DNA of 64,000 nucleotides from positions 38,052-102,051 of the forward strand of contig CAVOGG010000006.1 in NCBI GenBank assembly GCA_963695175.1, in the 5' to 3' direction. Made by a program: the position numbers and the translations under genes. This document shows positions 18,769-34,631 of the stretch, in pieces. How positions within the stretch are numbered: position 1 is the stretch's first letter; every line of letters begins with the position of its first letter. The notes beneath the pieces are model-generated. The model had not been told where the DNA came from. It saw only the letters and a program-made list of their open reading frames with translations, and made no database searches. The stretch is from an uncultured Actinomycetota bacterium. Lineage in GTDB: Bacteria; Actinomycetota; Actinomycetes; Actinomycetales; Dermatophilaceae.

Positions 18769-19575
18769 ATGTCGTTGTCGATCTGTGTCGTCGATCCTTC
18801 GCGTGCCACCACCGAGATCGAGGACTGGGGTTTCGGCGACGACGTCGCCGTCGTCACCGGGCGGCTCGGCGGCCCCGCGCTCGCGGCGCGGCTGCGTCCC
18901 GGCATCCGGCCCGGTTCCCGACTGGTCGTGCTGCACCGCCCGGCCGACCTGCCGGCGGCGGCACTCGTCGCCAACGTCGTCTCCGGTGCCCTTCCCCAGC
19001 TCGCGGTGACCCGTCTGCCGGTGGGGTCGAGCCTGCTGGGCGCCACCGTGCTCGGCCTCGAGGCGGCGCGCATCGAGGGGGAGTCGGACGGCACGCGGGT
19101 CACCCGGCTCGCCGGCACCCTCGACGGCGCCACCAGCGGCGCGTGGCTGTCCCGCGTCACCCGGCTCGCCTCGCCGAGCCCGAGCTTCGGCCAGCACCTG
19201 CGCTCCCTGCTGCCCGGCGGCCCGCGCTTCGTCGCCGTCCACGGGCCGCACGGCGGGGTGGTCCGGGCCGAGCCCGACGGGTACGACGGGTCGTCCTCGG
19301 GCCGGCTCGTCATCGGCGCCCCGGCCGACTCCGTGGCCGCCGAGCAGCTGCGAGCGTGGTACGGCAGCGACGACGTCGTGCACGTACCGCCGGTGCTCGC
19401 CGACGCCCGCCTGGTCTACGGCAACGCGGGGGCTGAGTTCACCGTCGTCACCGAGGCGCTCGCCGACCCCGGCCCGGTGGTCGGCACGTGCCCCGTGTGC
19501 CACGACGCGCTGCACGGCACCGCCTGCGCGTTCTGCCACGTCAACCCCCGCACCACCGAGGAGAGCACCGCATGA
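18769..19575 (+). CDS. Hypothetical protein with C-terminal zinc ribbon, first gene of the tad operon
   Basis: ATG 18769 after GGAG/AGGA; candidate -10 TAAACT at 18707-18712; CPVC...CAFC motif; ATGA overlap with cpaB. Confidence 0.72.
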   Translation: MSLSICVVDPSRATTEIEDWGFGDDVAVVTGRLGGPALAARLRPGIRPGSRLVVLHRPADLPAAALVANVVSGALPQLAVTRLPVGSSLLGATVLGLEAARIEGESDGTRVTRLAGTLDGATSGAWLSRVTRLASPSPSFGQHLRSLLPGGPRFVAVHGPHGGVVRAEPDGYDGSSSGRLVIGAPADSVAAEQLRAWYGSDDVVHVPPVLADARLVYGNAGAEFTVVTEALADPGPVVGTCPVCHDALHGTACAFCHVNPRTTEESTA

Positions 19576-20303
19576 ACCCCCGCCAGCGCCGAGGGCTGCT
19601 CTTCGTCCTCGTCTCGTTCGTCGTCGCGGTGGGCACCTTCTTCGCCGTGTCCGCCTACGTCGCGAACGTCAACTCCCAGGTGGGGTCCCGGGTGACCGTC
19701 TACCAGGCGCGCCAGGCGGTCGGCGCCTACACGCCGCTCGGCCCCGACAACCTCGAGGCCGTCGAGGTGCCCGAGCGCTGGGTGTCGAAGTCGTCGGTGC
19801 TCTCGCTCGACGAGCTCCAGGGCCGCCGGATCGGCTTCCGGCTCAACCCCGGCACGACCGTGAGCTCCGACATGCTCATTCCCAGCAGCGCGCTGTCGTC
19901 CACCGAGCGTGAGGTCGCCATCAACGTCGACTCCGTCACCGGAGTGGCCGGCCGCGTGCGCCCCGGTGACCGCGTCGACATCTACGCCGTGTTCGCCGAC
20001 GTGCCCGGGCTCCCGAAGTCGGTGCGCATCCTCGTGCGCGACGTGCGCATCGTCTCCATCGCCGGCGAGCAGACGGTCACCCAGAGCAGCGCCGCGGGTG
20101 GCACGGCGGAGCAGAAGGTCATCCCCGTCACCCTCGCCCTCGAGCCCGACCAGGCCCTGTCGGTCTCGTACGCGGCGGCGTTCGCGGCCGAGGTGCGCCT
20201 CGTGGCCCTGCCCAACGACGTCGGCACCAACCGGCAGGGCGAACCGAACAACTACGACGCCTCCGAGCTCGGTGGCAAGGCCGTTCTCGAGAAGGCGAAC
20301 TGA
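19572..20303 (+). CDS. cpaB: Flp pilus assembly protein CpaB (RcpC/TadC-associated SAF domain)
   Basis: N-terminal TM helix, SAF-like domain, GVAGRVRPGDRVDI motif, VTLALEP. Confidence 0.92.
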   Translation: MNPRQRRGLLFVLVSFVVAVGTFFAVSAYVANVNSQVGSRVTVYQARQAVGAYTPLGPDNLEAVEVPERWVSKSSVLSLDELQGRRIGFRLNPGTTVSSDMLIPSSALSSTEREVAINVDSVTGVAGRVRPGDRVDIYAVFADVPGLPKSVRILVRDVRIVSIAGEQTVTQSSAAGGTAEQKVIPVTLALEPDQALSVSYAAAFAAEVRLVALPNDVGTNRQGEPNNYDASELGGKAVLEKAN

Positions 20304-22084
20304 TGCGCATCCTCATCGGCATGTCGAACGGGACCATCGAGTCCGACCTGAGGTCGCTGCTCGAGGAGCTCGACGACACCCAGGTCATCGGCGTCGCGCA
20401 GACGAGCAGCATGGTGCTCGACTACGCATCACGGCTCGACCCCGACATCGTCGTGCTCCACGAGCACCTGGGGCCCGAGCCGGTGCTGCAGACCATCCGC
20501 GACTTCGGCGCGCGGCACCCGAGCGTGGCGGTGCTCGAGGTCTCGGCCGAGCGCACGCCCACGACCGTCATCCGGGCGATGGAGGCCGGCGCCCGCGGGG
20601 TCATTGCGCACCCGTTCGCGTTCGAGGACCTCTCGGCCAAGGTCACCGCGGCCAGCGACTGGTCGCGGCAGATGAAGCGCATCCTCGCCGGTGCCATCGC
20701 CCAGGCGGGCTCGGCCCGCGGCAAGGTGATGGCGGTGGTCGGCGCCAAGGGGGGCGTGGGAACGACGACCCTCGCGACGCATCTGGCCCTGGACCACCTG
20801 ACCGCCAACCCCAACCGGCGGGTGTGCCTGGTCGACCTCGACTTGGAGAAGGGCGACGTCAGCGCGGTGCTCGACGTGCGGCAGGCGGTGTCCATCGCCG
20901 ACCTCGCGAAGGTGCACCAGGACCTCTCCGGCAGCACCGTCAACGACGCCGTCGTGCAGCACGAGTGCGGCCTGAACCTGCTGCTCGGCCCGGCCGACGT
21001 GCGGCTGACCGAGCTGATCACCGCAGAGGCGCTGCGCCCGATCTTCGCGCTGCTGCGCCGTGAGTTCGACCTCGTCGTCGTCGACGGCGGCGGCTCGGTC
21101 TCGCCCGCCCAGGCCTCGGTCGTCGAGCTCGCCGACGAGACGGTCGTCGTCACCACCGCTGACGTGCTCGCGGTGCGGGCGATGCGCAAGCGGATCCTCG
21201 CGTGGGAGGCGCTCGGCGTCACCGACGAGAGTGCGCTGCGGGTCATCGTCAACAAGGTCGACCGCTCGAGCATCTTCCCCGCTTCCGCGGTGGCCCAGCT
21301 CACCTCCGCCGTGGTCCTCACGGCGACCGTTCCGTTGTCGGTGCGCGCGCTGGAGCCGGCGATGAACGAGCGCGACCCCCGCGCCGTCACCGAGGTGGCG
21401 TGGTGGCGCCTGATGACCCAGCTGCGGCGCGAGCTCGACCTCGAGGACGCCCGGCCGGCGGCCGTGAAGCCGTCGCGCGGGGCGCGCGGTCGTCGGCCCG
21501 CCGAGCGCGAGCATGAGGTCCCGGCGGCGGGAACGGCGGGCGAGGAGCAGAACGCTCCCGCCGGCTCGGTGGCCCGGCTGGGCCGGCGCGGCGGCGTCCG
21601 GGGCGAGCGGACTGCAGCCCCGGCCTCCGAGGTCGCCGCCGCCGCTGCTGCCGCGGAGGCCGCTGCCGCCGCCGCCGAGGAGGCCGCTGCCGCCGCTGCG
21701 GATGCCGCGGCAGTCGCCGAGGTCGCCGAGGTCGGGGGACGCCGCCGGCGCGAGGCCGGCCAGGTGGCCCTGGAGAACGTGGTGCTGCTCCCGCTCATCC
21801 TCTTCATCGCCCTCGCGGCGTGGCAGGTGGTCGCCATCGGGCTGACCTTCGTCATGTCGGGCAACGCCTCGCGGGTCGCGGCTCGCGAGTACTCGGTCAC
21901 CGGCAGCCAGTCCAGCGCCCAGGCGGCGGCTCGCGACCGCTCTCCGTGGGCCTTCGACGACCTCACCGTCTCGGTCTCCGGCGACGAGGTGACCGTGCGG
22001 ATGCAGATTCCCGCGGCCGGCCCCGCCAGCCTGAAGTTCCCCCAGCAGCTGACATCGACGCGGTCGGCGGTGAGCGAGCGATGA
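20303..22084 (+). CDS. cpaE: CpaE/TadZ-like protein (receiver + MinD-like ATPase) fused to a C-terminal TadE-like pilin
   Basis: Receiver-like N-terminus, GAKGGVGTTT, LVDLDLEKGD, VVDGG; Ala/Glu-rich linker; RRREAG|QVALEN prepilin motif, TM helix and AAREYS TadE motif, with no stop in between. Confidence 0.85.
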   Translation: MRILIGMSNGTIESDLRSLLEELDDTQVIGVAQTSSMVLDYASRLDPDIVVLHEHLGPEPVLQTIRDFGARHPSVAVLEVSAERTPTTVIRAMEAGARGVIAHPFAFEDLSAKVTAASDWSRQMKRILAGAIAQAGSARGKVMAVVGAKGGVGTTTLATHLALDHLTANPNRRVCLVDLDLEKGDVSAVLDVRQAVSIADLAKVHQDLSGSTVNDAVVQHECGLNLLLGPADVRLTELITAEALRPIFALLRREFDLVVVDGGGSVSPAQASVVELADETVVVTTADVLAVRAMRKRILAWEALGVTDESALRVIVNKVDRSSIFPASAVAQLTSAVVLTATVPLSVRALEPAMNERDPRAVTEVAWWRLMTQLRRELDLEDARPAAVKPSRGARGRRPAEREHEVPAAGTAGEEQNAPAGSVARLGRRGGVRGERTAAPASEVAAAAAAAEAAAAAAEEAAAAAADAAAVAEVAEVGGRRRREAGQVALENVVLLPLILFIALAAWQVVAIGLTFVMSGNASRVAAREYSVTGSQSSAQAAARDRSPWAFDDLTVSVSGDEVTVRMQIPAAGPASLKFPQQLTSTRSAVSER

Positions 22085-22425
22085 GACGCCGCGGCGAGCG
22101 CGGCACGGCATCCCTGGAGTTCCTGGCCCTCGGGCCGTTCGTGCTGCTCGTCGGCTTCCTGGTGTGGCAGCTCGCGGTCGGGGCCTGGGCCGCGACCTCC
22201 GCCAACGAGGCCGCCCGCGCCGCTGCCCGCGCGGCCAGCCTCGGCCAGGACCCCGGCCGGGCCGCCGAGCGCGCCCTGCCCGGCGGGCTGCGCAACCACA
22301 CCCTCACCGGGGGTCGGTCCGGCGACGGCTACCGCTACACGGTGCGGGTCGAGGTCCCGGCCTTCTCCGCCGTCGGGCTCGACCCGGTGAGCCGCACCGT
22401 CGAGATGCCGGCGGAGCGACCGTGA
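22081..22425 (+). CDS. tadE: TadE-like minor pilin
   Basis: ERG|TASLEF prepilin motif, TM helix, ANEAARAAARAAS. Confidence 0.88.
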   Translation: MRRRGERGTASLEFLALGPFVLLVGFLVWQLAVGAWAATSANEAARAAARAASLGQDPGRAAERALPGGLRNHTLTGGRSGDGYRYTVRVEVPAFSAVGLDPVSRTVEMPAERP

Positions 22426-23750
22426 GCAGGTCCTACGGCTCGTTCATCGGCGCCGCGGCGGCCGGGCGGGTCGGCACCGAGGACGACTCGCTGATCACGA
22501 CCTTCCGTCGCCTCCTCCTCGAGGAGGTCGACCTCCACGAGCTGAGCAAGCTCGAGCCGAGCCAGCGTCGCGCGCGCCTGGAGCGCGTCATCGCCCACCT
22601 CGTCTCGCGCGAGGGCGTCATCCTCTCGACGAGCGAGCGCAACCTGCTCGTGCGGCGGGTGGTCGACGAAGCGGTCGGCCTCGGTGTGCTCGAGCCGATC
22701 CTCGCCGACCCGACGGTGAGCGAGATCATGATCAACGGGCACGAGACGATCTACGTCGAGCGCAGCGGCCGGCTGGAGCGGTGGCCCAGCGGGTTCACGA
22801 ACGAGGAGCAGCTGCTCCAGACGATCGACCGCATCGTCTCCACGGTCAACCGGCGCGTCGACGAGTCGAGCCCGATGGCCGACGCCCGGCTGCCGGCCGA
22901 CACCCGGATGCCGCGCGGTGCCCGCGTCAACGTCGTGCTCCCCCCGCTCTCCCTCAACGGGCCCACGGTGACGATCCGGCTGTTCCCGACCGCCATCTCG
23001 CTCCCGCGCCTCATCGAGTGGGGCTCGCTCAACGCCGACCTCGCCGCGCTGCTCCAGGCCTGCGTCGAGGCACGGCTCAACGTCGTCGTGTCCGGCGGCA
23101 CCGGCTCGGGCAAGACCACGCTGCTCAACGCGCTCTCCAGCTTCATCTCGACCAAGGAGCGCATCGTCACCATCGAGGATGCCGCCGAGCTGAGCCTGGA
23201 CCAGCCGCACACCATCCGCCTCGAGACCCGCCCGCCGAACATCGAGGGCCGCGGGCAGGTCACCATCCGCGACCTCGTGCGCAACTCGCTGCGCATGCGA
23301 CCCGACCGGATCATCGTCGGGGAGTGTCGCGGCGGCGAGGCGCTCGACATGCTGCAGGCGATGAACACCGGCCACGAGGGGTCGCTCACCACGGTGCACG
23401 CCAACAGCCCCGGCGACGCCCTCGCCCGGCTCGAGACGCTGGCCACGATGAGCGACGTCGAGGTGCCGTTCCACGCCATCCGCGACCAGGTGAACTCGGC
23501 CATCGACGTCATCGTGCAGCTCAACCGGCACTCCGACGGTGCCCGGCGGGTCGTCGAGACCTCCTACCTGGCCTCGCGGCGGCAGGAGGACTTCGACCTC
23601 GTGCCGCTCGTCACCTGGGACCCGATGCACGTCGACGACGTCGCCCGCACCCGCGGCCGGTTCGTCACGCACCAGGTGCCTGAGGCGCTGCGGCGCCGGC
23701 TCGCCGAGGCGGGCGTCGCGCTCCCGGCCTTTCTGGAGCAGGCGTCGTGA
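22422..23750 (+). CDS. cpaF: Tad pilus ATPase CpaF/TadA
   Basis: GGTGSGKTT Walker A, TIEDAAEL, LRMRPDRIIVGE Walker B, AMNTGHEGSLTTVHANS His boxes. Confidence 0.97.
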   Translation: MSRSYGSFIGAAAAGRVGTEDDSLITTFRRLLLEEVDLHELSKLEPSQRRARLERVIAHLVSREGVILSTSERNLLVRRVVDEAVGLGVLEPILADPTVSEIMINGHETIYVERSGRLERWPSGFTNEEQLLQTIDRIVSTVNRRVDESSPMADARLPADTRMPRGARVNVVLPPLSLNGPTVTIRLFPTAISLPRLIEWGSLNADLAALLQACVEARLNVVVSGGTGSGKTTLLNALSSFISTKERIVTIEDAAELSLDQPHTIRLETRPPNIEGRGQVTIRDLVRNSLRMRPDRIIVGECRGGEALDMLQAMNTGHEGSLTTVHANSPGDALARLETLATMSDVEVPFHAIRDQVNSAIDVIVQLNRHSDGARRVVETSYLASRRQEDFDLVPLVTWDPMHVDDVARTRGRFVTHQVPEALRRRLAEAGVALPAFLEQAS

Positions 23751-24667
23751 TCGCCGCCATCTTCGTCGGCGCCGTCGCCGCGGCCGTTCTCGCGCTGCTG
23801 GGCGTGCGGGAGTTCGGCCGGGCCGCCCGCGACCGGCACGTCGCCATCACCGGCGCCGAGACCGGCCTCACCGACGACGAGCCCAACCTGCTCGAGGTGC
23901 TCGACCTTCGCTTCCGGCGCACCCGGGCCGGCCGGTGGCTGGTGCGCGAGCTCGACGTCGCCGGCATCAACCGCCGCCCGTCGGTGGTCTTCCTCGGCGG
24001 GCTCGCGGTCGGCGTCATCGGCTCGGTCCTGTTGTGGACGCTGCTCGCGCCGCTGCTCGGCGTCATCGGGAGCCTGCTCGGCCTGCTCGCCGTGCGCGCC
24101 TACCTGCGCCGGGCCCGCGAGCGCCGCCGGGAGGCCTTCGTCGGGCAGCTGCCCGAGCTCGCCCGGGTGCTGGCGAACGCCAGCTACGCGGGCCTGTCGC
24201 TGCCGACCGCCATCGCCATCGCCGGCGACGAGCTGCCCGAGCCGGCGCGCACCGAGCTGTCGCGGGTCGCCACCCGGTTGCGCTTCGGGTCGCCGCTCGC
24301 GCGGGCGCTGGAGGAGCTGCGTGAGCGGGTCGGGTCGCGAGAGACGTCGGTGCTCATCTCGACGCTCGTCGTCGCCTCGCGCAGCGGCGGCTCGCTCGTC
24401 ACGGCCCTGCGCGACATCGCCGAGACCCTCGAGCAGCGCAAGGAGACCCGCCGCGAGGTGCGCACCGTGCTCGCCCAGCCGGTCGTCACGTCGTACTTCG
24501 TCATCGTGCTCGGTGTCGTCATGCTCCTCATGCTCAACGTGATGCAGCCCGGCACGGTCGACAAGATGACCCGCCAGCCGCTGGGGCAGGTCGCGCTCCT
24601 GCTCGCGTTCGCCATCTTCGGGTCCGGCTTCTACGCCATCCGCAAGATGACGAGGTTCGACATATGA
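23747..24667 (+). CDS. tadB: Tad inner-membrane platform protein TadB (T2SS F domain)
   Basis: FVGQLPEL, GGSLVTALRDIAE, TM pattern, position after cpaF. Confidence 0.9.
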   Translation: MIAAIFVGAVAAAVLALLGVREFGRAARDRHVAITGAETGLTDDEPNLLEVLDLRFRRTRAGRWLVRELDVAGINRRPSVVFLGGLAVGVIGSVLLWTLLAPLLGVIGSLLGLLAVRAYLRRARERRREAFVGQLPELARVLANASYAGLSLPTAIAIAGDELPEPARTELSRVATRLRFGSPLARALEELRERVGSRETSVLISTLVVASRSGGSLVTALRDIAETLEQRKETRREVRTVLAQPVVTSYFVIVLGVVMLLMLNVMQPGTVDKMTRQPLGQVALLLAFAIFGSGFYAIRKMTRFDI

Positions 24668-25569
24668 GCTGGCTGGTCGGCACCGTCCCCGGGGTCGTCG
24701 CCGCGGTGGCGGTCTACCTCCTGCTGCGCGGGTACCGGATGCTGCGCACCGACCCGGCCGCCGACCTCGCGGTCGAGGACATCGCCATCCTGCAGGGGGC
24801 GACGCAGAAGCGTGCCCGGTCGCAGGGACCGGTCTCCGCGGTCGCGTACCGGCTGGCCCCCCGGGTGCGACGGCTCCTGCCCGCGAATGCCGTGACCTTC
24901 CTGCGCCGGCAGGTCGACCAGGCCGGCCGCCCCGAGGGCATCGACGTCGACTCGGTCATCGCCCGCGGCGTCATGTGGATGCTGCTCGTGTCTCCCGCCG
25001 TGGTGATCTTCGTCCTGCAAGGCCGGTGGCTGCCCGTGCTGATGGCGCTCGCGGCGATCCTCGTCATGCCGCTCGCCCGGTTGTCGACCCTGGCCCGCAA
25101 GCGGCGCGAGCGCATCGACCGCGACCTCCCGGACTTCCTCGACGTGCTCGCCGTGACGGTGAGCGCCGGCATCGGCTTCCGCCAGGCCCTCGGCGTGGTG
25201 TCGGAGCGCTTCGGCGGTCCGTTGTCGGAGGAGGTCACGACCACCCTGCACCAGATCACGAACGGCGCGAGCGTGCGCTCGGCCTTCCGGGCCATGCGCG
25301 ACCGCAACACCTCCGAGTCGATCGAGGAGTTCACGACGGCCTACCTGCAGGCCGAGGAGCTGGGGGCGCCGCTCGTCGACACCCTCAACCAGATCGCCGC
25401 CGACATGCGGCGCGCCTCCGCGCAGCGCTACCGGCAGAAGGCGGCGGCCATCGCGCCTCGGGTCACGCTGCTCACCACGGTCGTCATGGTGCCCGGGGCG
25501 ATGATCCTGCTGATCGTCGGCCTCTACATCGGCTCCGACCTGGACCTCGGGTCGTTCGGTGGCATCTGA
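24664..25569 (+). CDS. tadC: Tad inner-membrane platform protein TadC (T2SS F domain)
   Basis: IDRDLPDFLDVLAVTVSAGIGF, ELGAPLVDTL, position after tadB. Confidence 0.9.
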   Translation: MSWLVGTVPGVVAAVAVYLLLRGYRMLRTDPAADLAVEDIAILQGATQKRARSQGPVSAVAYRLAPRVRRLLPANAVTFLRRQVDQAGRPEGIDVDSVIARGVMWMLLVSPAVVIFVLQGRWLPVLMALAAILVMPLARLSTLARKRRERIDRDLPDFLDVLAVTVSAGIGFRQALGVVSERFGGPLSEEVTTTLHQITNGASVRSAFRAMRDRNTSESIEEFTTAYLQAEELGAPLVDTLNQIAADMRRASAQRYRQKAAAIAPRVTLLTTVVMVPGAMILLIVGLYIGSDLDLGSFGGI

Positions 25570-26755
25570 ACGGGCGCTGTCGCCGACGCGCCTGCAGCTG
25601 CGCGTCGCCCAGGTCGCGTTGCTCGTGCGGCTGGCGCTGCTCTTCGTCCTCGAGCTCGTGTGGGTGATCCGCGGCGACGGGCTCGCGACGCTCGGGGTCG
25701 TCGCAGCAGCCGGGGTGTCCTACCTGGCGCTCAGCTCGGCCCGGGCGCGGGTGGTGCTCATGCGGCATCCGCTGCTCGTGCTCCTCGACGCCGTGCTGGT
25801 GGCGGTCCTCGTCGGCATCGTCGGTGTCGACACCCCGTTCGCCCTCGCGCTCGCGACCTCGGCGCTGCTCGTGGGGCTGTGGCTGCCCGTCGTCCCCGGC
25901 CTGCTCGTGGTCCTGGTCCTCGTGGCGGTCGACCTCGTGCTCCTCACCGCCCGGCCCGTCGACGATGCCGGCCTGGTCGCCTACGTGCTCGTGGTGCCGG
26001 CCGTGCTCGTCACCTTGTGGCTGCTCGGGCTCGCGATCCAGCGCTCAGGTCGTGCCGAGGCACGAGCCCAGGCGTCGCTGCGTGACGCCATGTCGGTGGC
26101 GGCCACCGCCCAGGAGCGCGGCCGGATCGCCCGCGAGATGCACGACACCATCGCGAAGTCGCTCCAGGCGATGGCGCTGACCGCCTCCAGCATCCCGCGC
26201 CACCTCGACCGGGACGTCGACGTGGCGGCCGCCCGGGCCCGCGAGCTCGAGCAGGACTGCACTGCGGTCATCGCCCAGGTCCGCGAGCTGATGGGCGAGC
26301 TGCGCACCCCCGTTGCGCAGCTGCCCTTCAGCGAGGCCGTGGCGCAGGCCGCCGACGAGTGGAGCAGCACCACGGGTCGCCGGTGCACGACGCGTCTGGA
26401 CCCGGTCGAGGTCACCGACGGGCACGTCCGCTATGAGCTGCTCATGGCGCTGCGCGAGGCCCTCGACAACGTGCGCCAGCACGCCGGTCGGTGCACGGCC
26501 CGGGTCACGCTCGAGGCGGCGGGCGCTGACCGCCTCGCGCTCACCGTCAGCGACGACGGCCAGGGCAGCGACCCCGAGCACGTGGCGGGCGCACCGGCGC
26601 GCGGCCACTTCGGGGTGGTCGGGATGGCGGAGCGGATGGCCGGGGTCGGCGGAACCTTCCGCCACGAGACCCGGCACGGACAGGGCACCACGGTGACCTT
26701 CGAGGTGCACCGGCAGGGCCTCGTGGAGAAGCAGCAACGAGAGGTGGTGGCCTGA
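25559..26755 (+). CDS. Membrane sensor histidine kinase (HisKA_3, NarL-partner type)
   Basis: ERGRIAREMHD phospho-His motif, EALDNVRQHA N box, DDGQG G1, GHFGVVGMAER G2; several N-terminal TM helices. Confidence 0.93.
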   Translation: MASERALSPTRLQLRVAQVALLVRLALLFVLELVWVIRGDGLATLGVVAAAGVSYLALSSARARVVLMRHPLLVLLDAVLVAVLVGIVGVDTPFALALATSALLVGLWLPVVPGLLVVLVLVAVDLVLLTARPVDDAGLVAYVLVVPAVLVTLWLLGLAIQRSGRAEARAQASLRDAMSVAATAQERGRIAREMHDTIAKSLQAMALTASSIPRHLDRDVDVAAARARELEQDCTAVIAQVRELMGELRTPVAQLPFSEAVAQAADEWSSTTGRRCTTRLDPVEVTDGHVRYELLMALREALDNVRQHAGRCTARVTLEAAGADRLALTVSDDGQGSDPEHVAGAPARGHFGVVGMAERMAGVGGTFRHETRHGQGTTVTFEVHRQGLVEKQQREVVA

Positions 26756-27390
26756 TGGCCCACACGGTGTGCATCGTCGACGACAGCGCCGTCATGCGCC
26801 GGGGGATCCGTTCTCTCGTCGAGACCGACGACCAGCTCGAGATCGTCGCCGAGGCGGGGAACGGCGAGCAGGCGCTGGCCGCGGTGCGTCGGCTCCGGCC
26901 CGACGTCGTGCTCCTCGACGTGCGGATGCCGACCCGCGACGGGATCTCGGTGGTCCGGGAGATCTCCGAGGTGTCGCACGTCCTCATGCTCACCTTTTCC
27001 GACGAGAGCGAGGTCGTGCTCGCCGCCCTCGACGAGGGGGCCATCGGCTACCTCGTGCACGGCACCTTCGACGCCGACCGGCTGGGGGCGATGGTGCGTG
27101 CCGCGGCGGAGGGCACCGGCAGCCTGTCCGGTCCGGCCCTGGCGGCGCTGCGCGGCGGACGGGCCCCGGTGGCCGGCCCGGGAGGACGCGAGCGCTTCGA
27201 CCTGTCCGAGCGGCAGGCCGAGGTGATGGACCTCGTGGCCGCCGGCAAGACCAACGGGGCGATCGCGCGTGAGCTGTTCCTGTCGGAGAAGACGGTGAAG
27301 AACCACATCAACCAGATCTTCCCGCGGCTCGCGGTGACCACGCGGGCCGAGGCGATCGTGGCGTGGCTGGGAACCCGGCCCGGGTCCTGA
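26755..27390 (+). CDS. NarL/LuxR-family response regulator
   Basis: IVDD, VLLDVRMP phospho-Asp, LSERQAEVMDLVAAGKTNGAIARELFLSEKTVKNH HTH. Confidence 0.95.
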   Translation: MAHTVCIVDDSAVMRRGIRSLVETDDQLEIVAEAGNGEQALAAVRRLRPDVVLLDVRMPTRDGISVVREISEVSHVLMLTFSDESEVVLAALDEGAIGYLVHGTFDADRLGAMVRAAAEGTGSLSGPALAALRGGRAPVAGPGGRERFDLSERQAEVMDLVAAGKTNGAIARELFLSEKTVKNHINQIFPRLAVTTRAEAIVAWLGTRPGS

Positions 27391-27400
27391 CCGGGCCGAG

Positions 27401-27457
27401 TTGGGCCCCGCGCTGGGCCTGCGGACCCTGTGCGCCCCGGTGCGCCGTCCGTAGCGT
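27401..27457 (+). promoter_or_regulatory. Putative regulated promoter of flp (copy 1 of shared motif)
   Basis: TTGGGCCC-N5-TGGGCCTGC-N3-CCCTGTG-N19-TAGCGT; near-identical to 32134-32189. Confidence 0.6.
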
Positions 27458-27522
27458 TCTCGGTGTCAGGACGAGGACCGCAGGCCCTCGGACACCGGGG
27501 AATTCGGACCAAGGAGAACGCC

Positions 27523-27726
27523 ATGACCCACCAGCTCGCCGCTCGCTACTCCACCTACGCCGCCACGCTCAAGGACCGCCGCGAGGCCGGCCAGAACTCG
27601 CTCGAGTACCTCGGCATGGCGCTCGTCGCCGGCGTTGTCATCGCCGCCATCTACGGCGTCGTGACCGGCGCGGACGTGGGCGCGAAGATCAGCGACGCCT
27701 GGGCGAAGATCACCGGCGCGTCGTGA
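27523..27726 (+). CDS. flp: Flp major pilin (type IVc)
   Basis: 67 aa, AAGGAG RBS, REAG|QNSLEY Flp motif, hydrophobic helix. Confidence 0.92.
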   Translation: MTHQLAARYSTYAATLKDRREAGQNSLEYLGMALVAGVVIAAIYGVVTGADVGAKISDAWAKITGAS

Positions 27727-27827: not shown

Positions 27828-28421
27828 GTGCAGCACCGAATCCGTCGTCGTGAGGACGGCCAGGCGGTCACCGCCGTGGCCATCGTCGCCGTGCTCATCC
27901 TCGTGGCCGCCGCGCTCGGCATCGTCTTCCGCACGGGCAAGGTCACGAGCGAGGTGAGCAAGATCCAGTCCGGCGCGGATGCCGCGGCGCTCGCCGGGGC
28001 GCAGCAGGTGCGCGAGGACGCCCACGGCCGCATCGTCAGCTCGTTGCAGTCGCGCGTGCCGCGCAGCTTCTGGACGTGCGGCGACGGGCAGGGACGCGCG
28101 CAGTCGTTCGCCGGGCGCAACGACACCGACCTGACGACGTACTGCTACTACCCGCTCGCCGACCGCGTCGAGGCCACCGTGCGCAGCGACTTCGTCACCG
28201 AGACCGGAAGCCGCGAGAGCGCCTCCGCGGTTGCCGAGACCGGCCGCCGCCTCGGGCCGTGCATCGTGGTCGCCGTCCCTGGCTCGACCACCGGATACGA
28301 GACCACCGCCGACTGCGGCGACATCGTGGTGCGGGTGTACGTCGACACCACCGGCAACGTCACGCTGCTGACCACCCCCTCCGAGGTCAAGCGGATGTTC
28401 CGGGTCACGCTGCGCGAGTGA
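27828..28421 (+). CDS. TadG-like pilus-associated protein
   Basis: REDG|QAVTAV prepilin-like motif, TM helix, QSGADAAALAGA TadG-type motif, several Cys. Confidence 0.8.
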   Translation: MQHRIRRREDGQAVTAVAIVAVLILVAAALGIVFRTGKVTSEVSKIQSGADAAALAGAQQVREDAHGRIVSSLQSRVPRSFWTCGDGQGRAQSFAGRNDTDLTTYCYYPLADRVEATVRSDFVTETGSRESASAVAETGRRLGPCIVVAVPGSTTGYETTADCGDIVVRVYVDTTGNVTLLTTPSEVKRMFRVTLRE

Positions 28422-28509: not shown

Positions 28510-29124
28510 TCAGCCGTTGGCCGGCGTCGCGTCCGTGACGGGGACCTTCACGTCGGCGAACCAGGGGCTGGTCAGCGTCACCTCGGTCGTCCCGGCGGGC
28601 AGGGGCGGGTACAGGGCCGAGATGGGCGGGGTCTCGACGCCCTGGGTGAGGCGCAGGGCGGGGTCGGACAGGGCCGACCACCCGTCATCCTGCTTGTCGA
28701 AGGTGATGATCGAGTACTTCTTTCCGCCGGCCACCATGACCGGGTACTTCTCCCAGAACCGCACGTTGGAGTCACGGGAGCTGGCGCCGGGGGCGCCGGT
28801 GACCCGCCAGACGAGCAGGGTCGAGGCGTCGGACCGCGTCAGGCGGTAGAAGCCGAACGTTGCGCCCCGGTACGACGAGGAGGCCTTGGCGGGCGTCGTC
28901 GCGATCTGCGTGAGTGGGGCGGCGCCGCCGACGACGGCGGAGGACTGGTCCTGGGCGGTCGGGGAGGCGCTGGCGGACGGGCTGCCGCCCGGGGCGCCGG
29001 AGGCACTCTTCGAGGCGGTGGGGTCGGGGGCGCCGGGGCTGAAGGTGCACCCACCCAGCACGGTGGCGGCCACCGCCGTGGCGGCGATGGCGGCGAGGGG
29101 TCGTCGGGTCATCGCAGGCCTCAC
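28510..29124 (-). CDS. Lipoprotein (paralog of 30275-30832)
   Basis: LGGC lipobox; SSYRGATF, STLLVW, YPVM, ALYPPLPA, TLTSPWFADVKVPVT. Confidence 0.8.
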   Translation of the reverse strand: MRPAMTRRPLAAIAATAVAATVLGGCTFSPGAPDPTASKSASGAPGGSPSASASPTAQDQSSAVVGGAAPLTQIATTPAKASSSYRGATFGFYRLTRSDASTLLVWRVTGAPGASSRDSNVRFWEKYPVMVAGGKKYSIITFDKQDDGWSALSDPALRLTQGVETPPISALYPPLPAGTTEVTLTSPWFADVKVPVTDATPANG

Positions 29125-30185
29125 TTCGGCAGGGTGATCGTCACGCGGCGGTTGAGGGCTCGCCCCTGCGCGGAGCCGTTGTCGGCGATGGGGTCGGTCT
29201 CACCCTTGCCGACCGCGGTGACCCGGATGCCCCGGGGGATCTTCGGGGCCAGGGCTGTGGCCACCGCCGCCGCACGCCGCTTGGACAGGTCGAGGTTGTA
29301 GGCGTCGGGGGCGTTGCTGTCGGTGTGGCCGGTGACGGTGATCGCCCCGCTGCTGCCCGCGGCGGTGATCTGCTTCGCGGCCTCGGTGATCACGGCGTTG
29401 GCGGCCTTGGTCAGGGTCGCCTTGTCGGTGGCGAAGAGCACCGAGGCGTCCAGGTCGAGCTCGGCGCTGCCCTTGCGCTTGGCCTGCGTCACCTTCTTCC
29501 GGACGTCCTGCACCTGGCTGCGCAGGGCGAAGACGGCCCCCTCGGGATCCACGACCTCGGCCAGCCGGGCGGTGTCGACCCGTGGCCACCCGGTGCCGAC
29601 GGCCGGTGCGGCCTCGTCGACCACCGGCTCGAGCGGGCCGTCCTGCACGGGCACGCCCTGGACGATCTGCGAGCCGACGAGCACGTCGACAGCGGTGACA
29701 CCCGCCGGCACCGGGGCCAGCGCCACCCACCCCACGGTCGCGCGGCCCAGGGCGTCCTCGGGCGCGCGCAGGTCGAGGTTCTTCGTCGAGAGGCAGCGCC
29801 CCACCGCGTCCGTGCGCAGCGCGCTGTAGGCGGTTCCGCTCGCCACGTCGATGGCGGCCGCCGTGCAGGCCAGCCCGGTCGCGCCGTTCTGGTTGAGTGC
29901 GAACCAGTTCCCGTTGCCGTAGCTGTCGAAGAACGCGGCACCCCCGGTCTGGTCCTGCGCGCGCAGGCCGAGCGAGTAGTACAGGGCAGTGGCCCCGTCG
30001 ATGCGGCGCACCCCGTGCACCGTCAGGACGGCGAGCCGGGGGTCGCTGGCGTTGCCCATCCACGCCTGGCCGAGGACCGGCACCTCGGGGACGGTGGGCA
30101 GCGGGGGGCTCGTCGCGGCCCGGGCCGGCACCGCGGCACAGGCCAGTGCGGCGGCCGTGACGAGCACGGTCGCAAGGGTCTTCAT
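29121..30185 (-). CDS. Secreted protein with C-terminal OmpA-like peptidoglycan-binding domain
   Basis: Signal peptide; VLFATDKATL, GHTDS, YNLDLSKRRA, NRRVTI OmpA_C motifs. Confidence 0.9.
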   Translation of the reverse strand: MKTLATVLVTAAALACAAVPARAATSPPLPTVPEVPVLGQAWMGNASDPRLAVLTVHGVRRIDGATALYYSLGLRAQDQTGGAAFFDSYGNGNWFALNQNGATGLACTAAAIDVASGTAYSALRTDAVGRCLSTKNLDLRAPEDALGRATVGWVALAPVPAGVTAVDVLVGSQIVQGVPVQDGPLEPVVDEAAPAVGTGWPRVDTARLAEVVDPEGAVFALRSQVQDVRKKVTQAKRKGSAELDLDASVLFATDKATLTKAANAVITEAAKQITAAGSSGAITVTGHTDSNAPDAYNLDLSKRRAAAVATALAPKIPRGIRVTAVGKGETDPIADNGSAQGRALNRRVTITLPK

Positions 30186-30274
30186 CGCGGTGGTCCCCCC
30201 TCGATGGCAAACAGGTCCGCCGTGACCCTACCTACCTGAACCCGGATCTTGGGCCCAAGGGGCCGACGAGACGA

Positions 30275-30832
30275 CTACTCGTGGGTGACGGGCACCGTGA
30301 CGTCGCGGAACCACGGAGAGCTGAGGGTGACCGACGCAGCGTCTGCGGGCAGCGGCGGGTAGAGGGCCCCCTGCGGGTTCGGCTCAGCACGCATCGCCCG
30401 CATGTCGACGCACGCGCACTCGACCTCGCCGGTGGTCGCCTCGTAGGTGAGCACCGAGTACGACCGGGACTTCGTCGACAGGACCGGGAAGTTGCGCCAC
30501 CCCCGGACGTCGAAGTCCGAGCCCGCCGACAGGGTCCGGGGATGGGCGGCCGACCACACGACGAGCGTCGACCGCTTGCTGGTGCGCACCTCGAGGATGG
30601 TGAAGGTCGCCCCGGAGTACGACGAGTCGTCGCGCGCGGGGGTGGTGGCCAGCGGTCGGAGTTCCTCGAGGTCGAGGAAGTCCGCTGTCGGCCCGACGTC
30701 CGACGGGGTGGGGCTCTTCGCGATCGTCAACCTCGGGCTGGGAGCGGGCGAGCCCGGGTCGGCCGTGCAGCCGGCGGCGAAGAGGGCGACGCTGAGGACG
30801 GCCGCGACCCAGCCGGCACGACGAGTGCTCAC
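30275..30832 (-). CDS. Lipoprotein (paralog of 28510-29124)
   Basis: GTG 30832 overlapping the upstream stop; FAAGC lipobox; SSYSGATF, STLVVW, FPVL, ALYPPLPA, TLSSPWFRDVTVPVT. Confidence 0.8.
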   Translation of the reverse strand: MSTRRAGWVAAVLSVALFAAGCTADPGSPAPSPRLTIAKSPTPSDVGPTADFLDLEELRPLATTPARDDSSYSGATFTILEVRTSKRSTLVVWSAAHPRTLSAGSDFDVRGWRNFPVLSTKSRSYSVLTYEATTGEVECACVDMRAMRAEPNPQGALYPPLPADAASVTLSSPWFRDVTVPVTHE

Positions 30833-31638
30833 GGTGTCGCGCTCGCGGTCGGCGAGGGGGTGGCGGACGGCGCGGTGGAGGCCGACGGTGCCGGGGACGG
30901 TCCGGGCGAAGGCCGGCTCGCGGGTCGCTTCGCCACGTGCAGCTGGAGCGTCTTGATGGCACCGTCGGGGCGCGCGCCGCCGATGGCGACCGTGTCGACC
31001 CGTGGCCACCCGGTGCCCACGACGGGGGCCGGGGTGTCGGCGGTCGGCTCGAGCGCGCCGGCGCCCACCGGCACACCCGGGATGAAGGCGCTGCCGATGA
31101 GCACGTCGACGGTGCGCACCGTGGCGGGCACCGGTGCCAGGGCGATCCACTGCATGACCGCCCGGCCCGAGAGCCGCACCCGGTCGGTCTCGGCCACCGG
31201 GGGAGGCGCGGCGACGGCGCGGCCGGTCGCGGTGCGCAGCGCGCCGTAGGACCGCTTCCCCGGCACGTCGACCAGGGCCGCGGTGTCCATGAACGTCGCC
31301 CCCGCGGAGGCCTGCAGGGTGCCGAAGGTGTCCGGACCCGAGCCGTAGGCGGTCACCGGGAGCACCTCGGGGTCGGGGGCCTCCCCGGCGAAGCCGACGG
31401 AGTAGTAGAGGATCGTCGCGCCCTCGATGCGGCGCACCGCGTGCACCGTGACCACCATCGAGGGGGGCCGCTCCTCGCCCTGGCCGAGGCCGCCGACGAC
31501 GGCCTGACCCAGCACGGGCAGACCGGTGCCGACGGGGACGTCGCGCGAGATCGCGTCAGCGGGCGAGGCCATGGCGAGCAGTGCCGCCAGGGTGGTCGCC
31601 GCACACCCCGCGAGCATCCCCCGCCGTCCCCCGCCCAC
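30829..31638 (-). CDS. Secreted paralog of the N-terminal domain of the OmpA protein, lacking the OmpA domain
   Basis: Shares PVLGQA, TVHxVRRIxGATxLYYS, ALAPVPA, VDVLxGS, GTGWPRVDT with 29121-30185; ends in a Pro/Ser/Thr tail. Confidence 0.8.
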   Translation of the reverse strand: MGGGRRGMLAGCAATTLAALLAMASPADAISRDVPVGTGLPVLGQAVVGGLGQGEERPPSMVVTVHAVRRIEGATILYYSVGFAGEAPDPEVLPVTAYGSGPDTFGTLQASAGATFMDTAALVDVPGKRSYGALRTATGRAVAAPPPVAETDRVRLSGRAVMQWIALAPVPATVRTVDVLIGSAFIPGVPVGAGALEPTADTPAPVVGTGWPRVDTVAIGGARPDGAIKTLQLHVAKRPASRPSPGPSPAPSASTAPSATPSPTASATP

Positions 31639-31722
31639 GGGCCCGACAGTACCTCGCGGCGTGACAGGATCGGGCCCGGAGTCGCGGGGCCCGGGGGCCG
31701 TGACCGGAGGAGGGGACGCTCG

Positions 31723-32118
31723 GTGCGCACGGTGGGGTGGGTGATCGCGGGTCTGTGTGGCGCCGGCTTGGGCGCCGGCCTGCTCGGCATCCTCGGCCTC
31801 GCGGTGGGGGCCTCGACGACGAGTGTTCCCGCGTCGGTGGCGGGGCGCACGGCCCTCACCCTCGTGGCACTCGCCCTCGTTGCACTGCTCGTGAGCCGTC
31901 GTGGCCCGTGGTGGTGGTGGGCACCGCCCGTCGCCGTGCTGACCGCCGCCATGGCGCTGGACCCGCTGACCTGGACGGCATCCGCCCGCGCCGGCGGGCC
32001 GCTGTTCGGGGTGTGGGCCACCGGCTCGGCGCCGCTCGGCCTGGCCCTCGACCTGCTCGTCTGGCTCCTGGTCGCCCTCGGTGCGGTGTCCCTCGGCCTG
32101 CGCACCCGCGAGGACTGA
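31723..32118 (+). CDS. Small multi-TM hypothetical membrane protein
   Basis: GTG 31723 with GGAGGAGG RBS; about four hydrophobic segments. Confidence 0.65.
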   Translation: MRTVGWVIAGLCGAGLGAGLLGILGLAVGASTTSVPASVAGRTALTLVALALVALLVSRRGPWWWWAPPVAVLTAAMALDPLTWTASARAGGPLFGVWATGSAPLGLALDLLVWLLVALGAVSLGLRTRED

Positions 32119-32133
32119 GCGGACCCGCCCCGG

Positions 32134-32189
32134 TTGGGCCCGGGTGGGCCTGCAGGCCCTGTGGTGCCCGGCGACCGCCGCCCTAGCGT
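32134..32189 (+). promoter_or_regulatory. Putative regulated promoter (copy 2 of shared motif)
   Basis: TTGGGCCC-N3-TGGGCCTGC-N3-CCCTGTG-N20-TAGCGT, 38 nt upstream of ATG 32228. Confidence 0.6.
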
Positions 32190-32227: not shown

Positions 32228-33718
32228 ATGGACCAGCGAGGCGCGCACGGTGTGACCGCGCGGCGACGCGAGCGCGGTGCCACGGCGGCGGAGTACGTCG
32301 GCATCATCCTGCTCGTCGGCGTGGTGGTCGCGGCGCTGGCCCTGGTCGTCAGCTCCTCCTCCGTCACCCCGCAGATCCAGCGCGCGTGGTGCCTCATCAC
32401 CGGTGCCGCCGGGGCGTCGTGCGGCGACGGCTCGACGCAGGCCGGAGACGAGGACGGCCTGACCGACGAGGACTTCGAGCCGGACAAGTGCCGCATCTCC
32501 GAGACCGGCGACAAGTACAGCTCGGTCATCAAGATCGGCTTCATCAAGATCGGCGAGAACGCCGGCTTCGTCGTCACCGAGTACAGCGACGGCACCGTGA
32601 CGATGATGGCGACCAACGGCTCCGAGCTCGGCGTCACCGGTGGCTTCGGGGCCGACGCCGCGTGGGGGCAGCTCGAGGCCGGGGCGAAGGTCGACTTCGG
32701 GGCGGGGCTGAAGTTCGACTACGGCAGCACGTGGTCCTTCGAGTCCAAGGACCAGGCCGACAGCTTCCGCCAGCAGCTCGACGACTACCTCTTCGACCAG
32801 TGGTCGATGACCCACCCGGTGTGCGGCATGGGGGTCTGCATGCCGCGGCCCATCAAGGGCGTCGAGCCCCCGCCCGTGCCGTCGACGACCTTTGGGGGCA
32901 TCGCCGTCACCGGTGAGGTGAACGCCCAGCTCGGCATCTCGGCGACCACGGGGACCGCCCCGCTGACCCAGGCGCAGATGACCGAGCAGAACGTGTCGGG
33001 GGTGCTGACCGCCGACTCGAAGTGGACGCTCACGAACGACAACAAGGGCACGCCGGACGACGCGCGCGACGACACCCGCACCTACGTCACGGCGATGACG
33101 CTGAACCCCAAGCTGACCGCCCAGATCGGGTTGGCGACCGGCGGTTTCGGGTCGATGGTGGGGATGTCCCTGTCGATCACGAAGGACGCCGACGGCAAGA
33201 TCACCCAGGTCAAGATCGTCTCCACGAGCGAGGTCACCGACAGCAGCGGCGGCAAGGGCGGCGGCACGGTGACCAACGGCTCGGGTGACACCAAGACCAG
33301 TGGCGGCGGCAGCATCAGCGGGGGAACGACGAACGGCGACGTGGTCGTCACCGAGAACGTCCTCGACCTCGACCCGGCCGACGCGGCGACCCAGCAGGTC
33401 GTCACCGACTGGCTCGGCGGCACCGGGAACTACGAGTGGCCGGGGCTGGTCTCGCTCAACGCGGTCGACCCGTCCGTCGCCGACCCCTCCGACCCGTTCG
33501 CCATGCTCATGCACACCGAGGCGACGAGCAGCAGCGTGGCCTACGACAAGGTCACCGACGTGCAGGGCTTCGCGCTCAACGTCAAGTTCGGCCTGGCGTT
33601 CGGGGCCGACTTCACGATGGAGAGCTCGGAGACGACCGCCACCGAGGCGGCCTACCTCGGGGCTCCGAAGCCCGACGGCACGCGACCCGTGGTGCCCTAC
33701 GAGGCGTGCGTAAAGTGA
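32228..33718 (+). CDS. Flp/Tad prepilin-like N-terminus fused to a large beta-rich extracellular domain (paralog B)
   Basis: RERG|ATAAEY cleavage motif, hydrophobic helix, WCLITGAAGASC Cys pair, Ser/Thr/Gly-rich strands, terminal Cys. Confidence 0.85.
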   Translation: MDQRGAHGVTARRRERGATAAEYVGIILLVGVVVAALALVVSSSSVTPQIQRAWCLITGAAGASCGDGSTQAGDEDGLTDEDFEPDKCRISETGDKYSSVIKIGFIKIGENAGFVVTEYSDGTVTMMATNGSELGVTGGFGADAAWGQLEAGAKVDFGAGLKFDYGSTWSFESKDQADSFRQQLDDYLFDQWSMTHPVCGMGVCMPRPIKGVEPPPVPSTTFGGIAVTGEVNAQLGISATTGTAPLTQAQMTEQNVSGVLTADSKWTLTNDNKGTPDDARDDTRTYVTAMTLNPKLTAQIGLATGGFGSMVGMSLSITKDADGKITQVKIVSTSEVTDSSGGKGGGTVTNGSGDTKTSGGGSISGGTTNGDVVVTENVLDLDPADAATQQVVTDWLGGTGNYEWPGLVSLNAVDPSVADPSDPFAMLMHTEATSSSVAYDKVTDVQGFALNVKFGLAFGADFTMESSETTATEAAYLGAPKPDGTRPVVPYEACVK

Positions 33719-33741
33719 CGGCCCGACGAGGGAGGACATCG

Positions 33742-34257
33742 ATGGTGCTGCGACGCACGGTGCTGCTCGCGATCGTGGGCGCGAGCGCGCTGGTCGCCGG
33801 TGGCTGCTCGGAGAGCGACGACGGATGGAGCACGGCCGAGGTGGGGCACCTGAGCGTCCAGCACCCCGCCGACTGGACGGAGGAGCCCCCGACCGGCGAC
33901 CTCTTCACCAAGCGCTGGGTCGGCGACGACATGGAGATCCAGGTCTCCGGCAGCTTCAGCGAGGACCCCACCGCGTCGGCGGCCTTCAGCCGGCTGGACC
34001 TCCCGGCGACCGTCGGGCTGGCCGACTACGAGGGCGGTGCCGTGCAGAACGCCACCGTCGAGGGAGCCGACACCGCCGTGCGCAGCGACTTCACCTTCAC
34101 CCAGGACGGCGCGCCTCGCCGTGGGGTCTGGGTCGTCGCCGGGCAGTACCCGTACCCGAGCACCGCCGCCGTGACGATCACCGGCGAGAACCTCGACGAG
34201 CAGGTCGTGCAGCACGTCGTCGAGAGCCTGCGGTTCACCAGGACCCGGGGGGAGTGA
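33742..34257 (+). CDS. Lipoprotein, possibly PsbP/LpqN-like
   Basis: GGAGG RBS, AGGC lipobox, LSVQHPADW motif. Confidence 0.8.
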   Translation: MVLRRTVLLAIVGASALVAGGCSESDDGWSTAEVGHLSVQHPADWTEEPPTGDLFTKRWVGDDMEIQVSGSFSEDPTASAAFSRLDLPATVGLADYEGGAVQNATVEGADTAVRSDFTFTQDGAPRRGVWVVAGQYPYPSTAAVTITGENLDEQVVQHVVESLRFTRTRGE

Positions 34258-34631
34258 GCACCGTGCGCGCCCGCTCGCTGCTCGCTGCCCTGCTGACCGC
34301 GGTCGTCGTCGCCCTGCTGCTCCAGCGGGCCGTCCTGGTGCTGCCGCTGCTCGCCACCCTCGTCGGCGCGGCGCTCGGCGCCGTCGTCCTCGTGGCGCTG
34401 GAGCGGCGCCGCGACGGCGAGGTCGTCATCGGTGGGGCGGCCGTCGGCGTGGTCACCGTGCTCGCCTCGATGCTCGGCCTTGCCGTCCTGGGCATGCCCG
34501 TGCTCTCCGCGGTCTACCTCGCGGGGTGGGTCGTCACCTTCCTGCTCGCCGCAGGGGCCGGCGCCGGCATCGTCTGGCTCGGCGGACGGGTCGCGGAGCA
34601 CGGGTCCGGCAGCCCGAGAACGCTGCGCTGA
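34254..34631 (+). CDS. Small multi-TM hypothetical membrane protein
   Basis: GTGA overlap with the lipoprotein stop; about four hydrophobic helices. Confidence 0.7.
   Translation: MSTVRARSLLAALLTAVVVALLLQRAVLVLPLLATLVGAALGAVVLVALERRRDGEVVIGGAAVGVVTVLASMLGLAVLGMPVLSAVYLAGWVVTFLLAAGAGAGIVWLGGRVAEHGSGSPRTLR

Follow-up and report, generated by a model that had tools for sequence, protein, structure and literature searches.

The stretch analysed here (the window) comprises 64,000 nucleotides (nt) of contig CAVOGG010000006.1 from an uncultured bacterium of the Dermatophilaceae. Its DNA is GC-rich (70-78% GC), and a monoderm-type Tad island spans 12-35 kb of it. The subject of this report is a coding sequence of this island (32228-33718, plus strand) for a 496-aa protein, hereafter the target, which consists of a Flp-type class III signal, an α1 helix, a cysteine loop, a linker and a 412-aa body. 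On the same strand it is followed by the gene for a lipoprotein of 171 aa (33742-34257), with its lipobox cysteine at position 22 and a PsbP/Mog1-like fold, and by that for a 125-aa membrane protein with about four spans (34254-34631; the 4-TM protein). No Pfam or NCBIfam model covers the family to which the target belongs, and a literature search found no paper on it.

The Flp-type front end of the target

Read from the ATG at 32228, the target is exactly as long as its closest homologs, which are found in Phycicoccus. Its leader, MDQRGAHGVTARRRERG (M1-G17; 32228-32278, plus strand, like all target features given here), ends in RRERG and is predicted to be cut after G17 by a prepilin peptidase. 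The α1 helix that follows (residues 18-42; 32279-32353) starts with ATAAEY, continues as a hydrophobic stretch without charge and is modelled by AlphaFold2 as a helix over residues 19-42. The junction RRERG|ATAAEY joins a short hydrophilic leader ending in Gly to a sequence with Glu in position +5 and, at +6, an aromatic residue. Further along lie a C55-x9-C65 loop, CLITGAAGASC (32390-32422), which is shared with a paralog in the island and in which both cysteines are invariant in the alignment of the target family (A1), and, beyond the linker, the body (residues 85-496; 32480-33715), modelled as mixed α/β. The pair C55-LITG-AAGAS-C65 matches the pattern CxITGx5C; the other cysteines stand at positions 88, 199, 204 and 494, and Ser, Thr and Gly together account for 32% of the mature protein. 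The cleavage site, pilin helix and CxITGx5C pair reported in the original prediction were all confirmed in position, and the hydrophobic runs that it had quoted, GVTGGFGADAAWG and GFALNVKFGLAFGADF, are present in the translation.

Full-length relatives, of about 480 aa and none of them named, number more than 130 in a word-indexed search; their hosts are Phycicoccus, Janibacter, Knoellia and Branchiibius, in GTDB terms Dermatophilaceae, and, among the Propionibacteriaceae, Microlunatus, Friedmanniella and Propioniciclava. An exhaustive profile search yielded 770 cluster representatives at E-values up to 1e-3. In an alignment of 55 target homologs, the -1 Gly (G17) and the +5 Glu (E22) are conserved in at least 90% of the sequences, and C55, C65, C88 and C494 are invariant. 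The remaining invariant positions hold Gly, Pro, Trp, Phe, Ala or Arg, and this alignment contains no conserved His or other catalytic-looking set. The four invariant cysteines may well form C55-C65 and C88-C494 disulfides. A strict test for the class III motif was passed by 198 of 262 family sequences, most of those failing it being truncated gene calls or conservative variants.

When the six frames of the 4.3-Mb genome were scanned with a loose pattern (G-x4-E-x plus a hydrophobic tail), 29 matches were obtained, in just six of which the Glu is followed by Tyr or Phe. All six sites, not every one of which was compared with a family library, have pilin-like lengths and leaders, and four of them fall in the Tad island, namely in the target, Flp, a TadE-like protein and a large protein encoded at 15483-16820. 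Judged from these sequences, chance does not explain the class III motif of the target. In the window's own genome, the A1 profile recovers the target, and its N-terminal 60 positions match the island Flp gene (E = 2.3e-6) and the 15483-16820 paralog (E = 1.3e-6). The front end of the target is therefore homologous to Flp, beyond a likeness of composition. The target as a whole matched no Pfam or NCBIfam family at E-values up to 0.1; in Pfam neither the PF13400 TadE/G-like N-terminal domain nor a vWA domain (von Willebrand factor type A) was detected on it, and a profile search of PDB sequences gave no match. A separate vWA protein is encoded in the Microlunatus elymi locus.

Association with the Tad pilus

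Three independent lines, namely position, phyletic pattern and regulation, link the target to Tad. Tad genes lie within 10 kb of a target ortholog in about 30 of 40 genome loci. The gene order takes at least three forms: in Phycicoccus the target gene follows the OmpA pairs, in Janibacter alittae it sits between the peptidase gene and cpaB, and in Microlunatus it diverges from the peptidase gene; in loci of the Microlunatus type the A24 peptidase gene adjoins the target ortholog.

The phyletic pattern was read from 151 genomes of the host's bacterial family, in which the Tad subtype of the window was recognised by a TadC at least 47% identical (about 30% for a more widespread second Tad system). 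A target-family member is present in all 14 genomes with this subtype, as against 2 of the 137 others (Fisher's exact p = 6e-18), and one of these two exceptions is a member of the type VII type described below. Genomes with the subtype hold a member of the target's own type (A), a member of the type of the 15483-16820 paralog (B), or both, and two other species of the window's genus have neither the subtype nor the family.

As to regulation, an operator-like repeat, TTGGGCC-N-TGGGCC-N3-GGCCC, stands upstream of the target (32134-32159, plus strand), and a -10-like hexamer, TAGCGT (32184-32189, plus strand), can be read from the sequence 24 nt past the repeats and 38 nt before the ATG. The same repeat and TAGCGT precede flp (27401-27457, plus strand), and TGGGCCTGCNGNCCCTGTG occurs exactly twice in the window, at 27414 before flp and at 32145 before the target. 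In the larger element, direct repeats of TTGGGCC are joined by an inverted GGRCCC and, about 23 nt further along, by the TAGCGT-like hexamer; in the flp copies of other loci, too, TAGCGT or TAnnnT follows some 23 nt past the repeats. In 885 kb of loci the element pattern gave 23 matches, all on the gene strand and upstream of flp or of a target ortholog, spanning both bacterial families and many genera (loci L001-L044), and with a looser pattern the element was found before the target ortholog in about 18 loci. TAGCGT may act as a promoter -10, and the repeat element is plausibly a site for the LuxR-type response regulator encoded in the island (26755-27390). A sigma-70 consensus scan, made in the search for promoters and terminators, returned nothing useful. 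A small hydrophobic open reading frame (ORF) at 31719-32118 ends 16 nt before the repeat element; the same position is taken by a 130-aa gene in P. jejuensis and by a 143-aa membrane-protein gene in M. elymi.

The second large pilin-fused protein of the island, the B-type paralog (15483-16820, plus strand), was recognised from its motif and N-terminal module. It lies directly upstream of the A24 prepilin peptidase gene (16772-17515, plus strand; PF01478, E = 1.4e-11), which encodes the presumed processing enzyme, and its stop, behind the C-terminus WDGATWRPRSVGC, overlaps the peptidase start. Its N-terminal module is 46% identical to that of the target over residues 13-79 (hhalign E = 1e-6); for its body, BLASTP and hhalign gave no direct match to the target family, the N-terminal module alone being matched. 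A B-type protein from another genome of the bacterial family (L059) matches the paralog over 425 residues (E = 1e-12) and the A1 profile over 421 columns (probability 98.8%), and B-type proteins keep the layout of the target down to the C-terminal cysteine. Through this intermediate, the paralog appears to be distantly related to the target, as a member of the same superfamily. It is preceded by a lipoprotein gene (about 14830-15489). Comparison of the product of this gene with the lipoprotein partner of the target revealed no sequence similarity (E = 0.58 in BLASTP; a probability of 0.3% in hhalign), and homology between the two is not claimed here.

The Tad machinery itself, from CpaB to TadC, occupies 19488-25569 on the plus strand and was assigned from Pfam matches and the motif scan. 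Pfam identified CpaB (19488-20303), TadZ/CpaE (20303-22084), TadA/CpaF (about 22422-23750), TadB (23747-24667) and TadC (24664-25569), and the motif scan a TadE-like protein (22081-22425). The last ~110 residues of the TadZ/CpaE frame match a TadE-like protein; this stretch, which may be fused to TadZ or have a start of its own, corresponds to the first of the two TadE-like regions that lie in tandem in Janibacter corallicola. A histidine kinase (25559-26755) and the LuxR-type response regulator follow, and then, on the plus strand, the Flp major pilin (27520-27726), with the junction REAG|QNSLEY, and a TadG-like protein with the PF13400 'Tad' N-terminal domain (27840-28421). Between the TadG-like gene and the target, the minus strand encodes a secreted protein paired with a lipoprotein twice in tandem (28510-31638), an OmpA peptidoglycan-binding domain being present on only one of the two secreted proteins (29121-30185); this block is kept with the Tad subtype in Phycicoccus, Branchiibius and some metagenome-assembled genomes (MAGs). 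Downstream of the target operon are genes that we take, from their translations, to be ino1, a PadR regulator, a penicillin-binding protein and rpsF-ssb.

Two pilin-type motif sites lie outside the island, at C2:250158-250612 and C5:26805 of the window's genome. The former is the Flp/TadE pair of a widespread Tad system in a 'helicase/secretion neighbourhood', and the latter a TadE-like ORF with an FtsK/EccC-like gene and a third TadA-like ATPase close by. At C10:151652-155605 the same genome encodes a homolog of EccC (37% identity).

The body, its type VII-type relatives and the lipoprotein partner

The AlphaFold2 model of the target (predicted local distance difference test, pLDDT, 72; predicted template-modelling score, pTM, 0.72) is mixed α/β, with about ten helices plus sheets, and so departs from the ~430 aa of strands that had been read from the sequence. 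In this model α1 is followed by strands at residues 89-129, of mixed confidence. Low confidence attaches to the linker (residues 43-74), to Gly-rich loops at 98-110 and 132-147 and to a Gly/Ser-rich loop at 340-365. Foldseek found no neighbour of the model in PDB (best E = 0.36, template-modelling (TM) score at most 0.12) or in BFVD (best E = 0.65). As these searches gave noise alone, readings of the target as an aerolysin, adhesin or TadE fold were set aside, and the resemblance to β-pore-forming toxins or β-adhesins drawn in the original prediction finds no counterpart in the model.

Seven representatives of the family have no pilin front end and carry in its place a non-hydrophobic N-terminal domain of 130-150 aa with an invariant W-R ... 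Y-x-A-P-E-x-P motif; the conserved cysteines are all missing from them. In BLASTP, residues 85-491 of the target align with residues 150-541 of one such relative (P0160) at E = 8e-32, and the boundary of homology falls exactly at the end of the linker. A DUF6507 gene, a family for which the literature search found no paper, directly precedes the relative in all five contexts that were read; ESAT-6-like or WXG100 genes are present in four of the five, and eccD and eccC are reached in two. Because the same body follows a different N-terminus in these type VII (ESX) loci, it constitutes an independent, portable module. The relatives themselves may be exported by type VII secretion, judging by their gene neighbourhoods, and the loss of cysteines fits a state in which only the pilin-type body folds outside the membrane. 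No similarity of their N-terminal domain to WXG100 or to PDB sequences could be detected, and a search with it alone found it only on this body, in 7 proteins; nothing thus points to its being a trafficking domain of general use.

One Dermatophilaceae genus includes three genomes (L051:1668-4633, L052:7985-10631 and L055, G136:C365) in which the type VII-type gene, with WXG100, ESAT-6-like, DUF6507 and eccD/eccC genes upstream, is directly followed by genes for a DUF4244-type Flp, TadE_Rv3655c-family and Rv3654c-family proteins and a DEAD helicase. That pilin set belongs to the widespread second Tad system, and in the window's genome it stands, as is usual, behind tadA (C2:246813-253226). This adjacency is still a second association of the body with Flp pilins; it is given limited weight because it represents a single evolutionary event.

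The lipoprotein gene starts 23 nt past the stop of the target, behind a GGGAGGA ribosome-binding site, and its product has the lipobox LVAGG|C. The start of the 34254 ORF overlaps the lipoprotein stop (GTGA), and the encoded 4-TM protein is almost wholly hydrophobic. Neither protein matched Pfam or NCBIfam, and a profile search of PDB sequences with the lipoprotein gave no match. The close succession of the three genes in the window is as had been described for a tight operon; the three-gene unit is, however, not conserved, since outside Phycicoccus loci the 4-TM gene was detected in two MAGs only. The lipoprotein adjoins the target in nearly all of the more than 40 loci read, lying downstream of it in Dermatophilaceae loci and M. 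elymi and upstream in most Microlunatus-type loci. A lipoprotein profile matched exactly 10 of the 151 genomes, those with a full-length A-type gene, and always next to that gene. No homolog was found near the type VII-type genes, so that the lipoprotein tracks the export route, not the body.

Duplications of the target and its partner were seen in two genomes. In Kribbia dieselivorans (locus L053, 4205-9588) the family forms a tandem array in the order N-terminally truncated copy, lipoprotein, full copy, C-terminal fragment (residues 415-496) and full copy, one lipoprotein being set against 2-3 target copies. Two diverged pairs of target and lipoprotein, each with an OmpA-domain gene beside it, lie in Janibacter corallicola (locus L054, G054:C1:44000-63000), so that here two lipoproteins are paired with two targets; the block adjoins the Tad operon, and its make-up suggests that target, lipoprotein and OmpA-like gene were duplicated as one unit.

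The lipoprotein was modelled with a pLDDT of 91 as a sheet of antiparallel strands with helices at its flanks, the arrangement of PsbP, DUF1795 and LpqN. Foldseek returned 22 matches at E-values up to 1e-3, including EagT6, SciW, LpqN, Mtc28 and Mog1; the match to PsbP had probability 1.0 and TM scores of 0.62-0.66, those to EagT6/SciW and LpqN TM scores of 0.46-0.56, and Tsi3, Apa and DcrB came just below the 1e-3 cut. Proteins of the PsbP/Mog1 fold act as chaperones for hydrophobic helices (Eag), as immunity proteins (Tsi3) and as envelope lipoproteins (LpqN). Because the fold serves all three roles, it does not settle that of the lipoprotein; the tracking of the export route inclines us towards holding or docking, without amounting to proof.

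Interpretation and comparison with known systems

We slightly favour the reading that the target, which Tad would display or export, is a modular minor pilin of the Flp type, with the lipoprotein as its route-specific partner. The precursor would insert in the membrane with the body outside, and the A24 peptidase of the island would cut after G17. The new N-terminus, ATAAEY with its Glu at +5, and the α1 helix would then admit the protein to the Flp filament of the adjacent Tad machine, where its most likely position would be the tip or the priming complex. The 412-aa body, stapled by disulfides, would in this way be taken across the wall, to be displayed or set free outside, and the lipoprotein, tethered at the outer face of the membrane, would most likely hold or dock the body before assembly. 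Via the shared repeat element, the target would be switched on together with flp. Cleavage, filament incorporation and an activity of the body are thus parts of a model built from sequence comparison. The association with Tad is supported by the conservation of the motif (G17 and E22), the profile match to Flp, the A24 peptidase, the co-occurrence with the Tad subtype and the shared promoter element, all of which lend comparative weight to the earlier proposal that the protein would be processed like a pilin and depend on Tad.

Several observations weigh against this reading. The curated pilin models (Flp_Fap PF04964, DUF4244 PF14029, TadE PF07811, Tad PF13400 and the NCBIfam equivalents) gave no match above threshold on the target, and matches to DUF4244 appear solely below threshold, in 11 of the 55 family members. 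Five loci have no Tad gene within 10 kb, although at least one of the genomes concerned carries the Tad subtype elsewhere. The closest relative, P. jejuensis, shows no repeat element before its ortholog when searched with the same pattern. In the model, the region after the α1 helix is of low confidence.

Taken as an effector-immunity module, which we consider rather improbable, the body would be a toxin, for example a membrane-active one, shown to neighbours on the Tad pilus as in the Kil system of Myxococcus, and the lipoprotein, on the membrane surface of the producer, would be the cognate immunity protein. The occurrence of one body on two export routes, Tad and ESX, is reminiscent of polymorphic effectors. 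Also in favour are a distribution that is patchy even within a genus and the tandem copies and C-terminal fragment found in some genomes; Gly-rich segments of low confidence (GxxxGxxGGxG, residues 131-141) could insert in a membrane. Nevertheless, Pfam and NCBIfam revealed no toxin domain, no conserved catalytic-looking set is present, no structural match to aerolysin, haemolysin or another pore former was obtained, and conservation extends across the whole body with no hypervariable tip. The lipoprotein argues in both directions. It behaves as a strictly cognate partner, two targets being accompanied by two lipoproteins in J. corallicola, and its fold is common to the type VI secretion immunity protein Tsi3 and the Tle4/TplE immunity proteins; yet this fold fits the chaperones EagT6 and SciW equally well, a single lipoprotein goes with the 2-3 target copies of Kribbia, no homolog accompanies the type VII-type relatives, and in most Microlunatus-type loci the lipoprotein gene is upstream, with the repeat element between the two genes where it was found. 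The identity of the module as a toxin-immunity cassette, put forward in the original prediction, is neither supported nor excluded; rather than a proven toxin, the target seems to be a portable extracellular module.

A similarly low probability is given to the target being a structural or assembly part of the Tad subtype, that is, a priming or envelope-spanning subunit with no separate cargo function. That all 14 genomes with the subtype hold at least one A- or B-type member agrees better with an indispensable part than with a cargo that is optional; the island encodes two such proteins, of which one is joined to the peptidase gene, and minor pilins generally prime assembly (PMC10191384, PMC12075869). 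The presence of the body in ESX loci without the pilin module is, however, hard to square with a purely Tad-structural role; copy number varies, the body diverges between A and B types, and standard small minor pilins (TadE-like and TadG-like) are already available in the island. That the target is an ordinary membrane-anchored surface protein, with an uncleaved signal anchor and an incidental likeness to Flp, is very unlikely. Such an anchor would agree with the lack of curated pilin models above threshold and with a leader whose cleavage is predicted only, but it would have no need of a conserved -1 Gly and +5 Glu, and the significant profile match to Flp, the strict co-occurrence with one Tad subtype and the promoter element in common with flp all speak against it.

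To our knowledge, the Tad pili of Gram-positive actinobacteria are poorly understood, including what their tips contain and where their specific functions come from. The target family is a concrete candidate for the functional head of these pili, and a bare Flp-type front end carrying a big module of unrecognised fold defines a large unannotated family. Should the presence of the same module in type VII secretion loci be borne out, one extracellular module would be served by two unrelated export systems, which would be an unusual case and would offer a handle on the roles of Tad and type VII systems in these soil and sludge bacteria. A bolder reading, to which we assign only a small chance, takes the body as a secreted effector that actinobacteria have moved between two export machines. 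In one version the Flp-type prepilin front end would make the monoderm Tad pilus a means of delivery similar to the Myxococcus Kil tips, with the PsbP-fold lipoprotein protecting or loading the producer; in the other, ESX would export the same body, in one genus from a gene that directly adjoins Flp pilin genes. Type VII secretion and Flp pili would then be functionally linked.

In Tad systems, large minor pilins whose distal domains vary make up the tips of pili (PMC12075869, PMC12607857), and modular pilins are widespread (PMC8179133). The nearest counterparts are KilN of the Myxococcus Kil system, TadG, and CpaL of Caulobacter, which, like the target, are encoded in or near tad loci together with small TadE-like pilins (PMC12075869, PMC12607857). 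They share with it a leader, a hydrophobic α1 and a large C-terminal module (that of KilN likewise without PDB homolog), as well as predicted intramolecular disulfides and the presence of several paralogous versions per genome. The target differs from them in its N-terminus, which is Flp-like (G|xxxxEY) and not of the PF13400 TadG type, here found on a separate gene, in its monoderm actinobacterial host, in its dedicated lipoprotein and in the occurrence of its module in ESX loci without the pilin part; unlike the TadG and CpaL types, it has no vWA domain. PilB and PilC of Streptococcus sanguinis resemble the target in combining a class III signal and pilin front end with a linker and a presented module, again in a monoderm host (PMC8179133, PMC9934059). 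They belong, however, to the type IVa pilins; their globular pilin module is complete and their vWA or lectin module can be recognised, whereas the pilin part of the target is apparently little beyond a Flp-like helix and Cys loop, and the fold of its module is unrecognised.

For the lipoprotein, the structural search places EagT6 and SciW (DUF1795), LpqN, Mtc28 and Tsi3 in the same PsbP/Mog1 fold. LpqN is also an actinobacterial envelope lipoprotein, whereas Eag chaperones are cytoplasmic and the target's partner is predicted on the outer face of the membrane. As for ESX/type VII substrates, WXG100, ESAT-6-like and DUF6507 genes directly precede those for the relatives of the body, and eccC/eccD are nearby; the protein of the window differs from them by its membrane-inserting pilin front end and its cysteines. 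What sets the target apart from KilN, TadG, CpaL and the S. sanguinis pilins is the Flp-type instead of TadG-type front end, the unrecognised module, the dedicated lipoprotein and the type VII-type relatives.

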